Origin: Escherichia coli
Lineage (GTDB): Bacteria > Pseudomonadota > Gammaproteobacteria > Enterobacterales > Enterobacteriaceae
Strand: one strand, 5' to 3'
NCBI RefSeq assembly: GCF_024298765.1
Contig: NZ_CP101210.1
DNA: 64,000 bases
Part shown: positions 2,679 to 5,883 of the stretch, piece by piece
Layout: every line of letters starts with the position of its first letter
How positions within the stretch are numbered: the stretch's first letter is position 1
Position numbers and translations under genes: made by a program
Notes under the pieces: generated by a model
Database searches by the model: none
What the model was told of the DNA's origin: nothing
Seen by the model: the letters and a program-made list of their open reading frames with translations, nothing else

Positions 2679-2794
2679 CAACGCGTTTGAAGTTCTGGAC
2701 GGTGCCGGAATAGAATCAAAAATACTTAAGTAGCGCGCAGGGATAAGAGGGATGGTCCCTTAAAGGGGAGAGCTAATTATCCGGAAGGATTCTG

Positions 2795-3046
2795 ATGATG
2801 AACATCGAAGAACTGCGTAAAATTTTTTGTGAAGATGGCCTCTATGCTGTGTGCGTTGAAAATGGAAATCTTGTTAGTCATTACCGCATTATGTGTTTGC
2901 GAAAGAATGGGGCTGCGTTAATTAATTTTGTGGATGGTCGAGTGACAGACGGATTTATCTTGCGCGAAGGTGAGTTTGTCACTTCATTACAGGCACTGAA
3001 AGAGATCGGAATAAAAGCAGGCTTTTCAGCTTTTGCAGAAGAATAA
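2795..3046 (+). CDS. rem: prophage protein Rem-like (83 aa)
   Basis: 83-aa ORF at the position and size of Qin rem, between hokD and ydfU; assigned by synteny and length. Confidence 0.5.
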   Translation: MMNIEELRKIFCEDGLYAVCVENGNLVSHYRIMCLRKNGAALINFVDGRVTDGFILREGEFVTSLQALKEIGIKAGFSAFAEE

Positions 3047-3112
3047 ACTCATCTACAATCTTGCGCGGGGCTGAACTCCCGCTGAGTAACACCGTGCCAC
3101 CGGAGAAAACCG

Positions 3113-3391
3113 ATGGCACGCAACGTAAAATATTACAATTCTGATAATTCGCCCGTTCTTGCCTGCACGCACGGGCGGTATTCTCACGCATTCAAGTCTG
3201 AATGGTTCCAGCACCCTCCATGCACTGCAGAACAGGCCGAATGGCTGATTCATTCTTACTGCAGGCGCGGGTTCGAGGTTAAGAAAGCTCTCAGTCTCGA
3301 CTATCGGCACTGGATAATCTCTGTCAGGCTGCCTTATTCCGAACGCCCACCACGTGCGTCCCGCACTTTCCAGCAACGGATCTGGAGGTAA
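3113..3391 (+). CDS. hypothetical protein (92 aa), overlaps the start of the ydfU-like ORF in another frame
   Basis: ORF with GGAGAAAACCG ahead of the ATG; non-repetitive, protein-like composition; ends inside the 5' end of the next ORF. Confidence 0.35.
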   Translation: MARNVKYYNSDNSPVLACTHGRYSHAFKSEWFQHPPCTAEQAEWLIHSYCRRGFEVKKALSLDYRHWIISVRLPYSERPPRASRTFQQRIWR

Positions 3392-4442
3392 CGTGCGGGT
3401 ATTACTTAGACCTGTTCTGGTGCCTGAGCTTGGGCTGGTGGTCCTTAAGCCGGGCCGTGAATCCATACAGATATTTCATAATCCTCGAGTGCTGGTGGAA
3501 CCGGAACCAAAAAGCATGCGTAATCTGCCATCCGGAGTCGTTCCTGCCGTTCGCCAGCCGCTGGCGGAAGACAAAACATTGCTGCCGTTTTTTAGTAACG
3601 AACGGGTGATTCGTGCTGCTGGCGGCGTTGGCGCATTGTCTGACTGGCTATTACGTCATATTACATCCTGCCAGTGGCCTAATGGCGATTACCATCACAC
3701 TGAAACAGTCATTCACCGTTATGGTACCGGCGCAATGGTGTTGTGCTGGCACTGCGACAACCAACTGCGTGACCAGACATCGGAATCACTGGAGCTGCTT
3801 GCTCAACAAAATCTGACAGCATGGGTGATTGACGTCATCCGTCACGCAATAAGCGGTACGCAGGAGCGGGAATTATCTTTGGCTGAATTATCCTGGTGGG
3901 CGGTCTGCAATCAGGTGGTGGATGCACTACCTGAGGCTGTATCGCGTCGTTCGCTGGGATTACCAGCGGAAAAAATCTGCTCGGTGTACCGCGAAAGCGA
4001 CATCGTACCGGGAGAGCAGACCGCCACCAGCATATTGAAACAACGCACAAAAAATCTTGCACCGTTGCCTTACGCCCACCAGCAACAAAAACCACCACAG
4101 GAAAAGACGGTGGTAAGCATCAACGTTGATCCAGAGTCTCCGGAATCTTTCATGAAGCTGCCTAAACGTCGCCGCTGGGTTAAGGAGAAATACACTCGTT
4201 GGGTTAAGACACAGCCGTGTGCTTGCTGCGGTATGCCAGCCGACGATCCGCATCATCTGATTGGTCACGGGCAGGGCGGAATGGGAACAAAAGCACATGA
4301 TCTCTTTGTGTTGCCTTTGTGCAGAAAGCATCACAACGAGCTGCATACGGATACAGTGGCATTTGAAGAGAAGTATGGCTCCCAACTGGAGCTGATATTT
4401 CGTTTTATCGATCGCGCGCTGGCAACTGGCGTACTGGCGTAA
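3354..4442 (+). CDS. ydfU: YdfU-like prophage protein with C-terminal Cys/His HNH-like motif
   Basis: Large ORF upstream of the Q gene as in Qin; C-terminus CACCGMPADDPHHLIGHG...LCRKHHNELH resembles an HNH/zinc-binding nuclease motif. True start uncertain (first 50 aa are low-complexity; an internal Met at 3516 is possible). Confidence 0.5.
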   Translation: MRPALSSNGSGGNVRVLLRPVLVPELGLVVLKPGRESIQIFHNPRVLVEPEPKSMRNLPSGVVPAVRQPLAEDKTLLPFFSNERVIRAAGGVGALSDWLLRHITSCQWPNGDYHHTETVIHRYGTGAMVLCWHCDNQLRDQTSESLELLAQQNLTAWVIDVIRHAISGTQERELSLAELSWWAVCNQVVDALPEAVSRRSLGLPAEKICSVYRESDIVPGEQTATSILKQRTKNLAPLPYAHQQQKPPQEKTVVSINVDPESPESFMKLPKRRRWVKEKYTRWVKTQPCACCGMPADDPHHLIGHGQGGMGTKAHDLFVLPLCRKHHNELHTDTVAFEEKYGSQLELIFRFIDRALATGVLA

Positions 4443-4455
4443 GTGGAGAACGAGC

Positions 4456-5208
4456 ATGAACCTTGAAGCCTTACCAAAATATTACTCCCCAAAATCTCCA
4501 AAATTGAGCGATGACGCTCCAGCGACAGGCACCGGTTGTTTAACAATTACGGATGTAATGGCAGCGCAGGGGATGGTGCAGTCGAAAGCACCACTTGGGT
4601 TGGCCTTATTTCTGGCAAAAGTTGGTGTTCAGGACCCTCAGTTTGCGATTGAAGGCCTGCTAAATTACGCGATGGCACTGGATAACCCGACATTGAACAA
4701 ATTGAGTGAAGAAATCCGGTTACAGATTATTCCTTACCTCGTGAATTTTGCCTTTGCTGATTACTCCAGGTCTGCGGCAAGTAAGGCTCGCTGTGAGCAT
4801 TGTTCAGGTACGGGATTTTATAATGTATTGCGCGAAGTGGTGAAACACTACAGACGCGGGGAATCTGTAATCAAGGAAGAATGGGTGAAGGAACTATGTC
4901 AGCATTGCCATGGTAAGGGCGAAGTCAGCACAGCGTGCAGAGGGTGTAAGGGTAAAGGGATTGTTCTGGATGAAAAAAGAACCCGGTTTCATGGCGTACC
5001 GGTATATAAGATTTGTGGGCGTTGTAATGGAAACCGATTTAGTCGTTTACCGACCACGCTGGCACGACGTCATGTCCAGAAGCTGGTACCAGACCTGACC
5101 GATTATCAGTGGTATAAGGGGTATGCGGACGTCATTGATAAACTGGTAACAAAGTGCTGGCAGGAAGAAGCATACGCGGAAGCGCAATTGAGGAAGGTGA
5201 CGAGATAA
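4456..5208 (+). CDS. quuQ: late-gene antiterminator Q-like protein with DnaJ-type CxxCxGxG zinc-finger repeats
   Basis: 250 aa, matching the length of Qin Quu[25 protein letters not shown] motifs; immediately upstream of a late promoter/terminator pair. Confidence 0.6.
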
Positions 5209-5340: not shown

Positions 5341-5883
5341 TGCTTTAAATGGGGCAATAGAGATATTGAATCTCATCCCGGGATAAACATTGGCAGTTGA
5401 AGGTCCACGCGAACCATTTATCCGGCAAAATTCCACGCGTAATCCTGTGGTAATTTCTTCTGCATCTCGAAGATTGAGAGCTGAAACGTGAAGCTGGGCA
5501 TCGATACGCCATCGGATGGGAATATAAGACCTTTGCTGCTTTTGTAGTCAAAGTTTTTGACAATTCCTGTCATTTTAGGGGACAGAAAAACTCCTTAATA
5601 CTGATAACCTGGTGCACCATACACACGTTCCTGGAGAAAACTACTTTTTTGATAGGGTTGAAGGTGGCTGGATGTCTAAAATAAACATTGCTTCATATGT
5701 TCAACTATGAGTTAATGACTGCGTCGGTTTGAAGAACAGACGATATACGAAGTAGTTTACTAAAGCAGTTCTCATTTCAGGTGTTATTCACTTATTCCTT
5801 CTTTGAGTCTCTCCAATTAAGTACGAAGTCGTTTCTGTTATGCAAACCATTTATGCCGAAAGGCTCAAGTTAAGGAATGTAGA

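Follow-up and report, generated by a model that had tools for sequence, protein, structure and literature searches.

Gene content and context of the locus

The window analysed here, a stretch of 64,000 nucleotides of Escherichia coli DNA, contains the nin-like region (replication genes to Q) of a Qin-type lambdoid prophage, with the gene order hokD, rem, ORF92, ydfU and the Q antiterminator. This is the same locus as rem-ydfU-ydfT(quuQ) of the Qin prophage in E. coli K-12, with 98.9% DNA identity to K-12 derivatives, the difference being that 5' of hokD the window carries a gene with a RelA/SpoT domain where K-12 has relBE. The genes considered below are the following:

2795..3046, + strand: rem, the context gene 5' of ORF92, in the same orientation (RefSeq annotation; phrog_340 match)
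3113..3391, + strand: ORF92, a hypothetical phage protein of the phrog_1212 family, 92 amino acids, ATG start, TAA stop
3393..4442, + strand: ydfU, a DUF968/His-Me finger (HNH) protein, 349 amino acids, GTG start (RefSeq WP_001696469.1; NP_416078.4 in MG1655)
4456..5208, + strand: ydfT/quuQ, antiterminator Q, the context gene 3' of ydfU, after a gap of 13 nt (Pfam Antiterm, E = 7.7e-55; RefSeq)

An earlier note, made from the sequence alone, had drawn attention to the ORF at 3113..3391 with its Shine-Dalgarno (SD)-like GGAG, to a larger ORF at 3354..4442 and to an internal ATG at 3516, all of which are present as described. In RefSeq, PGAP annotates ORF92 at exactly the same coordinates (WP_032297225.1) and, in a 100%-identical strain, in a K-12 derivative and in O157:H7, places ORF92 at 3113-3391 and ydfU at 3393-4442, with a gap of 1 nt. 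The arrangement of two genes, with the stop codon of one next to the start codon of the other, is an ordinary one that is already annotated as such in RefSeq. The comparative evidence presented below comes from a set of 39 distinct homologous loci with 84-100% identity.

ORF92 is a protein-coding gene

The length of ORF92, 92 codons, is in itself no proof of a gene because an antisense ORF of 137 codons exists at 3053..3466 and yet carries interruptions in 29 of 38 homologues, for which reason it was rejected as a gene. It is conservation, not length, that identifies ORF92 as a real protein-coding gene: the frame is intact in all 39 loci, with dN/dS of 0.19 in its own frame compared with 1.5-1.7 in the other two frames. 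The following parts can be delineated in and before this gene:

3103..3106, + strand: Shine-Dalgarno-like GGAG of ORF92, 6 nt 5' of the ATG (anti-SD duplex of -6.6 kcal/mol)
3113..3193, + strand: codons 1-27, a lineage-specific, fast-evolving N-terminal extension, predicted to be disordered (pLDDT ~50)
3194..3388, + strand: codons 28-92, the conserved core, with a predicted beta-alpha-beta-beta fold and a C-terminal PRxxxxxQQRxW tail

In the core, dN/dS is 0.10, the variable sites are distributed 13/13/41 over the codon positions, and the AlphaFold2 model reaches pLDDT >90 for residues 31-70. In codons 1-27, the variable sites number 11/12/13 per codon position and dN/dS is 1.1, that is, there is no purifying selection; this extension of ~26 residues is missing from the 66-amino-acid relatives of ORF92, and the N-terminal motif MA[RQH][ND/H]xKx[HY]N[SA][DE] is kept in relatives with 45% and 31% identity. 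Because these codons are not under purifying selection, the functional weight of ATG 3113 rests on its being the sole in-frame start, on its conservation in 39 of 39 loci and on the indels, which are in frame in those variants that carry them (90-amino-acid forms). The SD region of ORF92, GGAGAAAACCGATG, is identical in 35 of the 39 distinct homologues, with one to three substitutions in the other four. The protein is expected to begin with MARNVK....

It is very unlikely that ORF92 encodes no functional protein and is only an untranslated or translated regulatory leader, which would act, for example, through Rho-dependent attenuation before ydfU and Q. Such a role fits the strong Rho-dependent termination zone that was reported 5' of ydfU in K-12, with rem unaffected (PMC9160355), as well as the C-rich, G-poor composition of 3305-3374 (39% C, 21% G), the unconstrained N-terminal 27 codons and the absence of ORF92 from the curated MG1655 annotation. 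It is contradicted by the low dN/dS of the core, by the confident compact fold predicted by AlphaFold2 and by the protein-level homologues, with 35-50% identity, of phages from at least eight genera of enterobacteria; moreover, a regulatory role of ORF92 translation is compatible with a functional protein product too. Given the Rho zone, ORF92 could be poorly translated in the uninduced, cryptic prophage.

In the curated MG1655 record (NC_000913.3), no gene is entered between rem and ydfU (about 1644306-1644584, complement), where PGAP records annotate ORF92. The K-12 terminator interval described as 'upstream of ydfU', which is devoid of genes in MG1655, is largely filled by ORF92. Adding this ORF, which is conserved, has a core under purifying selection and carries a PGAP annotation in further complete genomes of E. 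coli, to MG1655 would close a minor annotation gap.

The start of ydfU

The codons and signals that bear on the start of ydfU are the following:

3354..3356, + strand: in-frame GTG from which the 362-codon ORF appears to begin, non-functional as a start
3384..3388, + strand: GGAGG, the Shine-Dalgarno sequence of ydfU, within codons 91-92 (TGG AGG), the final sense codons of ORF92
3389..3391, + strand: TAA stop of ORF92, 1 nt 5' of the ydfU start, read in the sequence and invariant in homologues
3516..3518, + strand: ATG encoding the internal M42 of YdfU, rejected as a start

The start of ydfU is GTG 3393, which yields a protein of 349 amino acids, and neither 3354 nor 3516. This GTG lies directly 3' of the invariant TGGAGGTAAC, which holds both GGAGG and the TAA of ORF92, so that the junction reads ...TGG AGG TAA C GTG..., with a 1-nt spacer between stop and start; both GGAGGTAACGTG at this junction and the arrangement of TAA 3389-3391 and GTG 3393-3395 are the same in all 39 homologues. 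Only 4 nt, a short spacing, separate GGAGG from the GTG, and the anti-SD duplex of -10.7 kcal/mol, which belongs to the top ~1% of the 20-nt windows in the window, compares with +0.1 kcal/mol for 3354 and -3.5 kcal/mol for 3516. In a set of 51 distinct ydfU homologues, the start falls on one and the same residue throughout, being GTG after GGAGGTAAC in 48 and ATG after GGGAGG in three. YdfU of MG1655 is the 349-amino-acid form with the same GTG start, and in a collection of 15 billion proteins this form is found on >1000 contigs whereas the 362-amino-acid form is absent. A DUF968 gene that is 54% identical and follows RusA, not ORF92, has ATG at the residue matching 3393 (MRALLKP versus MRVLLRP here). 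The phrog_96 profile, through positions 1-334, is aligned to YdfU residues 1-349, and codons 1-41 show dN/dS of 0.21 in frame compared with 0.9-4.1 off-frame. The expected N-terminus of YdfU is fMet-RVLLRPVLVPELGLVVLK.

Among the explanations offered in the earlier note was that two genes overlap, and of this the two genuine genes stand whereas the overlap does not, the genes abutting with the 1-nt spacer. The ORF at 3354..4442 (+ strand) opens with GTG, comprises 362 codons, lies in frame +1 relative to ORF92 and nominally shares with it 38 nt (3354..3391, about 12.7 codons); this apparent overlap arises because the ORF rule takes the first in-frame start after a stop, here GTG 3354. That YdfU actually starts at this codon, as a protein of 362 amino acids the first 13 codons of which overlap the end of ORF92 out of frame, is extremely unlikely. 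The GTG is indeed in frame, and the ydfU frame is open from 3318 on in 39 of 39 homologues, but an open stretch of 25 codons is expected by chance with a probability of roughly 0.3 by our arithmetic, and the GTG itself is kept in 15 of the 39, with GTC or GCC in the other 24, of which 22 have no other upstream start. Furthermore, this GTG lacks an SD sequence, RefSeq places the start at 3393, and the stretch 3354-3392 evolves with dN/dS of 0.12 when read in the ORF92 frame but of 1.5 when read in that of ydfU (a rough estimate from 13 codons only). A test for dual coding was likewise negative for ORF92 and ydfU, given that the downstream start is not conserved and that the constraint in 3354-3392 is in the ORF92 frame only. 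The earlier note had named, as the finding that would speak against its reading, homologues with one uninterrupted frame from 3354 and no upstream ORF; this is not what the homologues show, ORF92 being intact in all of them. A 362-amino-acid form would begin with MRPALSSNGSGGN, and its marker peptide would be MRPALSSNGSGGNVR.

At tight phage gene junctions, calling the longest ORF makes false overlaps, and the true start of ydfU is the SD-preceded GTG one base past the upstream stop. The practical consequences are small.

A start of the large gene at the internal Met 3516, with the biased first ~41 codons as an untranslated leader, is exceedingly improbable. The compositional bias behind this proposal was correctly noticed: V, L and P abound at the N-terminus of the large ORF, entropy within the protein is lowest over its first ~50 residues (3.40-3.43 bits for the lowest 50-residue stretch versus a mean of 3.86), and the SEG filter of BLAST masks residues 1-18 of the 349-amino-acid form. 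In addition, residues 1-54 have pLDDT <50 in the AlphaFold2 model, built from a 29-sequence alignment, although this predicted N-terminus neither supports nor refutes translation from 3393. Against a start at 3516, apart from its weak SD, stand the low dN/dS of codons 1-41, with variable sites distributed 19/12/32 over the codon positions, and the conservation of these codons in the 54%-identical homologue with ATG at the equivalent of 3393. Twelve residues in positions 1-41 are invariant among homologues down to 53% identity, the divergent N-termini of two homologues (L010 and L091) preserve MR.L..P....G.V...PG......F...RVLVE, and the phrog_96 and phrog_11007 profiles begin at YdfU residues 1-2.

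The earlier note had also considered a frameshift that joins or splits a longer ancestral gene. Under this explanation, to which hardly any probability can be assigned, ORF92 and ydfU would be halves of a split gene, or would be joined by a programmed +1 frameshift near AGG-TAA; the ydfU frame is indeed +1 relative to ORF92 and open 5' to 3318, ORF92 ends in the rare sense codon AGG, with the stop next to it and on an SD-like sequence, superficially recalling the prfB frameshift site, and one database protein (P0150) runs from ORF92 into the ydfU frame. However, P0150 is known from one 2-kb read-assembly contig, where ydfU has a further interruption, and no genuine fusion of ORF92 with DUF968 was detected in 57 clusters of the ORF92 family (HMMER, 1.84 billion representatives). 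The core family is a stand-alone protein of 66 amino acids, the neighbours of which are NinG, YbcO, RusA or an exonuclease; there are also DUF968 proteins that share the N-terminus but have no ORF92 directly 5', and re-pairing from AGG to GGU would probably be poor, with no slippery motif evident. The longer family matches, which include a 1616-amino-acid multi-stretch match, are either unrelated repeat proteins (as inspected for those of 219 and 264 amino acids) or single-contig chimeras produced by deletion or frameshift.

Proposed translational coupling at the junction

The RNA around the junction contains one further predicted feature:

3360..3399, + strand: predicted RNA hairpin in which the end of ORF92 (3360-3373) pairs with the SD and GTG of ydfU (3382-3399), minimum free energy -19.3 kcal/mol

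The predicted stability of this hairpin (z = -2.66) falls in the lowest 1.6% of the 48-nt windows over the 64 kb, and the hairpin is found in all nine junction variants, with energies from -12.4 to -19.3 kcal/mol; the fold over 101 nt at the junction is unremarkable (z = -0.27). The covariation test of the hairpin yielded no compensatory pairs, with measures equal to those of shuffled controls: the changes in the pairs are limited to two C-to-U substitutions that keep G-U pairs, and no pair is altered on both sides. Because the hairpin buries the SD and the start codon of ydfU, it suggests translational coupling. The best explanation of the locus as a whole, and very probably the correct one, is that ORF92 and ydfU are two separate, adjacent genes, with ydfU starting at GTG 3393; its translation would be coupled to that of ORF92. 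The boundaries of the two genes, the coding nature of the individual stretches, the assignment to families and the hairpin as a thermodynamic structure are established by the evidence, the dependence of ydfU translation on ORF92, like any biochemical role of the ORF92 protein, being inferred.

Under the coupled arrangement, the SD and GTG of ydfU would be paired with ORF92 codons 83-87 in free mRNA, and a ribosome finishing ORF92 would melt the hairpin, after which either reinitiation or the loading of a new 30S subunit would occur at GTG 3393, so that the synthesis of YdfU would follow the translation of ORF92. Coupled adjacent genes with termination-reinitiation junctions are exemplified by trpE-trpD and trpB-trpA and by many gene pairs of lambda and T4. 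ORF92 and ydfU resemble such pairs in having the stop within a few nucleotides of the start (TAA-C-GTG), in the embedding of the downstream SD in the upstream coding sequence and in the predicted hairpin over the downstream ribosome-binding site; unlike in the established pairs, the hairpin here is thermodynamic, with no covariation, and the dependence of ydfU translation on ORF92 is a predicted one.

The ORF92 family and its possible role

Residues 27-92 of ORF92 match positions 1-66 of the 66 positions of phrog_1212 (E = 1e-34), a full-length profile match that is confirmed by the family alignment and by HMMER. When 1.84 billion representative proteins were searched exhaustively with HMMER, the family was delineated as 57 clusters, mostly of stand-alone proteins of 66 amino acids. 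Relatives are present in phages of Salmonella, Klebsiella, Yersinia, Edwardsiella, Cronobacter and Erwinia, and the family includes STM2620.1n of Gifsy-1, mEp237_051 and Orf QD1 of N15, in which the 66-residue core is homologous to ORF92 at 35-50% identity.

Like ORF92, the other phrog_1212 members are encoded in the interval from the replication genes to Q, as a rule immediately 5' of a DNA nuclease gene. In most of the loci examined, the phrog_1212 gene and the nuclease gene 3' of it are 1-2 nt apart or overlap by 4 nt; PY54 is an exception, with a gap of 48 nt to an uncharacterised ORF. The neighbours are NinG, YbcO, RusA and an Rv2179c-like (DEDD-type) exonuclease, and the notion that the small protein is always encoded 5' of a His-Me finger nuclease was rejected because RusA and the exonuclease are among them. 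ORF92 differs from the other members in its extra N-terminus of ~26 residues and in its 3' neighbour, which is a DUF968 gene and none of the above. The resemblance to NinE and NinF of lambda is limited to size and position, these being small ORFs directly 5' of a nin-region nuclease gene; in Pfam scans to E 1, neither ORF92 nor its 66-amino-acid homologue in Gifsy-1 matched NinE (PF05322) or NinF (PF05810).

Searches of Pfam, NCBIfam and PADLOC gave no matches to ORF92, those against PDB sequence profiles gave none either (best E = 0.55), and Foldseek against viral models returned only the uncharacterised Orf QD1 of N15, itself a family member. Two phage GenBank records label ORF92 as 'Toxin to Rem', and nothing was found in support of this label. 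A literature search by K-12 coordinates and WP accession retrieved unrelated papers only, none of them discussing ORF92.

Because the position of the gene is conserved, our best guess, held with low confidence, is that the ORF92 protein is a small accessory factor of the phage recombination/DNA-junction nuclease module. It is rather doubtful, though conceivable, that phrog_1212 proteins, ORF92 included, are unrecognised accessory or regulatory partners of DNA-junction nucleases, travelling with the following nuclease gene and seemingly coupled to it, and that ORF92 translation gates ydfU and Q in Qin-type prophages. If this were the case, gating would proceed via the unmasked ribosome-binding site of ydfU and the covering of the C-rich, Rho-loading stretch 3305-3374 within ORF92.

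The YdfU protein

A phmmer search with YdfU against PDB sequences gave no match, and when the whole YdfU model was compared with the PDB by Foldseek, no match had E < 0.8, the only resemblance being a faint one to the HNH domain of Cap5. The protein matches Pfam DUF968 (PF06147) with 256.8 bits, at a cut-off of 27.8, through residues 173-359 of the 362-amino-acid translation and the entire profile (1-171 of 171). DUF968 of YdfU (NP_416078.4) belongs to His-Me finger group 7, together with YbcO (PDB 3g27), so that YdfU is, by sequence, a putative DUF968/His-Me finger nuclease of this group. The DUF968/HNH domain has been described as the C-terminal domain of YdfU (PMC5714182), and its Cys and His residues have been assigned to an HNH/zinc-finger motif (PMC5714182, PMC4118853); among 29 homologues, with identities as low as 53%, there is no variation at C276, C279, H287, H288, C310, H314 and H318.

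The two reading frames and the start of ydfU

The region around ydfU is a segment of a Qin-type lambdoid prophage, in which the following genes are arranged on one strand, with the DUF968 gene ydfU between ORF92 and the Q antiterminator gene.

Features of the segment
2254-2428, +, sok (strong Rfam match, 117 bits; overlaps the hokD leader)
2423-2578, +, hokD
2795-3046, +, rem
3113-3391, +, ORF92 (ATG start, 92 codons)
4456-5208, +, ydfT/quuQ, Q antiterminator

The DNA of 2780-4460 shares 100% identity with E. coli strain 104 and 98.9% with K-12 derivatives; it finds a match in 4925 of 5426 complete E. coli genomes, with at least 80% of the query covered in 3431.

The elements described in the earlier note are all present: ORF92 with its ribosome-binding site (GGAG, 6 nt 5' of ATG 3113, -6.6 kcal/mol against the anti-Shine-Dalgarno), a 362-codon ORF that starts from GTG at 3354, ends at 4442 and lies in frame +1 relative to ORF92 (nominal overlap, 38 nt), an ATG at 3516, and a compositionally biased beginning of the large ORF, whose first ~50 residues are V/L/P-rich, partly SEG-masked and lower in entropy than any other window of the protein. 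What fails is taking 3354, the earliest start codon of the open frame, as the beginning of the large gene. We conclude that ydfU starts at GTG 3393, separated from the ORF92 stop by 1 nt, and that the apparent overlap was created by extending the frame to its longest ORF.

This conclusion follows from the strength of the Shine-Dalgarno (SD) sequence, conservation, selection pressure, the starts of homologues, profile alignment, RefSeq annotation and protein counts. At the junction (ATC TGG AGG TAA C GTG CGG), GGAGG at 3384-3388 pairs with the 16S 3' end at -10.7 kcal/mol, a value reached by only about 1% of the 20-nt windows of the 64 kb; the 20 nt upstream of GTG 3354 and of ATG 3516 give +0.1 and -3.5 kcal/mol, respectively. 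Among 87 homologous loci, of which 80 are viral contigs and the others come from annotated E. coli and phage records, 81 span the junction and yield 39 distinct sequences of 84-100% identity. The stretch GGAGGTAACGTG is invariant in all 39, whereas GTG 3354 is found in only 15, the remaining 24 having GTC or GCC, and 22 of these 24 lack any other upstream start. Codons 1-41 of ydfU (3393-3515) have a dN/dS of 0.21 in frame vs 0.9 and 4.1 in the other frames, and for 3354-3392 the values are 0.12 in the ORF92 frame vs 1.5 in the ydfU frame; these are pooled pairwise Nei-Gojobori estimates from pairs that are not phylogenetically independent, and 3354-3392 is short, but they point clearly one way, as do the counts of variable sites by codon position. 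Of 51 distinct full-length YdfU homologues, 48 have a GTG start after GGAGGTAAC; the other three, with 52-54% identity, lie behind RusA instead of ORF92, and their start, an ATG preceded by GGGAGG, falls on the homologous residue (MRALLKP vs MRVLLRP in YdfU here). Alignment with the phrog_96 profile begins at residue 1 of the 349-aa YdfU, RefSeq places the gene at 3393-4442 in every record inspected, including MG1655 NP_416078.4, and the exact 349-aa sequence occurs on >1000 contigs, whereas a collection of 15 billion proteins does not contain the 362-aa one. The Met codon at 3516, previously considered as a start, encodes residue 42 of YdfU, and the internal-start option is refuted.

ORF92 is a gene in its own right

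ORF92 is a genuine gene. It is intact (ATG, 92 codons, TAA) in all 39 distinct loci, with a dN/dS of 0.19 in its own frame vs 1.5-1.7 in the others, and is called by PGAP as WP_032297225.1 here, WP_012304870.1 in K-12 derivatives and WP_010917803.1 in O157:H7. The phrog_1212 profile matches residues 27-92 over all its 66 positions (E = 1e-34). Among 1.84 billion representative proteins, index-free HMMER matched only 57 clusters, mostly 66-aa proteins aligned to residues 28-92, with the consensus MKxxWFxHxxxTxEEAxELxxxYxxRGVxVEKSLSxDxxxWxVSVxLPESxxxPRxxxxxQQRxW. By tblastn, relatives were detected in Salmonella phages (Gifsy-1, SPN3UB, SEN34) and in phages of Klebsiella, Yersinia (PY54), Edwardsiella, Cronobacter, Hafnia, Erwinia and E. 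coli (mEp237). AlphaFold2 models residues 28-75 as a compact beta-alpha-beta-beta unit (pLDDT >90) with a disordered N-terminus. Profile and structure searches gave no assignable function, and the one robust property of ORF92 is its place in the nin-region recombination/nuclease module, usually tight against the next gene.

Gene orders around the small gene (ORF92 homologue)
Gifsy-1 and relatives: DUF1367 - small gene - NinG - YlcG - Q
mEp237: DUF1367 - small gene - YbcO/DUF1364 - RusA
L091 (5.6-Mb genome) and related contigs L092-L094: DinI - x - small gene - RusA - DUF968 - Q
L095/L096 (metagenome contigs): RdgC - small gene - Rv2179c-like exonuclease
PY54: recombination-associated protein - small gene - uncharacterised ORF48 (48-nt gap)

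The neighbours thus vary between phages, and no genuine fusion of the ORF92 core with DUF968 was found among the HMMER matches (57 clusters; of the three long matches, those of 219 and 264 aa were inspected, and the third, of 1616 aa, is a weak multi-stretch one); therefore, ORF92 is an independent gene rather than half of ydfU. The suggestion that a frameshift joins or splits a longer gene is thereby refuted, and of the alternative of two overlapping genes, the two genes stand but the overlap disappears when ydfU is taken to start at 3393.

Several candidate fusions were rejected. The two inspected long matches proved to be unrelated tandem-repeat proteins, and the database proteins P0128 and P0129 are chimeras produced by deletion, in which ORF92 up to residue ~53 (…RRRG) runs into the C-terminus of Q (LP…) or YdfU. 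P0150 alone reads out of ORF92 into the frame of ydfU; its source is one 2-kb read-assembly contig, where ydfU carries a further interruption. In a viral contig, L061 (IMGVR_UViG_2675903352_000011), a 19-bp deletion equivalent to 3533-3551 frameshifts ydfU; together with P0128 and P0129, this suggests recurrent deletions in the prophage segment, or assembly artefacts.

An antisense 137-codon ORF (3053-3466, -) covers ORF92 and the ydfU start, but contains stops or lacks an ATG in 29 of 38 homologues and is therefore spurious. Phage records ON470583.1 and ON470619.1 label the ORF92 homologue 'toxin to Rem' (2501-2779 in locus L007); we found no supporting evidence for a toxin role or a partnership with Rem. 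In one locus (L097), the homologue directly follows hok, without rem.

The two parts of ORF92 evolve differently. Codons 28-92 are under strong constraint (dN/dS 0.10; 13/13/41 variable sites by codon position), whereas codons 1-27 (3113-3193) show no purifying selection (dN/dS ~1.1; 11/12/13 variable sites, with no third-position excess). Nevertheless, ATG 3113, the sole in-frame start, is invariant, in-frame two-codon deletions in some lineages give 90-aa forms, and relatives with 45% and 31% identity keep the motif MA[RQH]xxKx[HY]N[SA][DE]. The 66-aa relatives lack the extension, which we read as a translated, fast-evolving, disordered tail specific to the ORF92 subfamily.

Possible coupling and termination at the junction

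Like translationally coupled pairs, ORF92 and ydfU have the SD inside the upstream ORF and stop and start 1 nt apart. The sequence 3360-3399 is predicted to fold as a 14-bp hairpin (-19.3 kcal/mol; z = -2.66 vs dinucleotide shuffles; among the lowest 1.6% of 48-nt windows in the 64 kb), in which the start codon lies in a GUGCGGG segment paired with CCCGCAC and the SD in a CUGGAGG segment paired with UUUCCAG; over 101 nt, the fold is unremarkable. A hairpin is predicted in nine of nine junction variants, but comparative support is weak, with no pair altered on both sides and just two C-to-U changes that keep G-U pairs, both at synonymous third positions of ORF92. Coupling through this predicted hairpin is a reasonable proposal: ribosomes completing ORF92 would unmask the ydfU SD and GTG 3393 and supply them with ribosomes.

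In lambdoid phages, nin-region terminators act ahead of Q. A very strong Rho-dependent termination zone has been reported upstream of ydfU in K-12, with rem unaffected (PMC9160355). The interval concerned is largely ORF92, the 3' part of which (3305-3374) is C-rich and G-poor (C 39%, G 21%), and the zone is therefore placed in or near ORF92; a location between rem and ydfU fits the pattern of terminators ahead of Q. Possibly, translation of ORF92 modulates read-through to ydfU and Q.

The YdfU protein

YdfU belongs to Pfam DUF968 (256.8 bits), which is included, along with YbcO/DUF1364, in group 7 of the His-Me finger proteins (PMC5714182); for members in Gram-positive phages, a fusion of an Orf-like DNA-binding domain with HNH has been discussed (PMC4118853). 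The HNH Cys/His residues are invariant in 29 homologues, as is an N-terminal C93-x7-HH-x15-CWHC motif (H101, H102, C118-W-H-C121), possibly a second zinc site. The N-terminal half (residues 55-190) lies beyond the Pfam DUF968 boundaries; AlphaFold2 is confident for residues ~55-190 (pLDDT 75-92) and parts of the C-terminal domain, and a Foldseek search with the model found no PDB match.

Annotation and neighbouring genes

The arrangement of ORF92 and ydfU is ordinary and already annotated. Beyond this, the points that stand are the unconstrained N-terminal extension, the putative coupling and Rho gating, and the omission of ORF92 from curated MG1655, a small gap in the reference annotation: NC_000913.3 lists nothing between ydfU (1643255-1644304) and rem (1644651-1644902), where the equivalent of 3113-3391 lies at about 1644306-1644584 (complement), whereas PGAP-annotated K-12 derivatives call the 92-aa ORF in this interval.

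Just 3' of hokD, a sub-threshold isrK-like Rfam match (2587-2668, +; 25.7 bits, E = 0.009) runs up to a terminator-like hairpin (2647-2664). On the 5' side of hokD, where K-12 has relBE, a 341-aa RelA/SpoT-domain protein (663-1688, +) shows a match (E = 5e-119) to PDC-S33, a candidate defence family in PADLOC, and may be a prophage-borne toxSAS-type defence or toxin gene. Finally, cspF, 3' of Q (~5383-5585, -), is annotated in the 100%-identical RefSeq record as a frameshifted partial pseudogene and is intact in MG1655.
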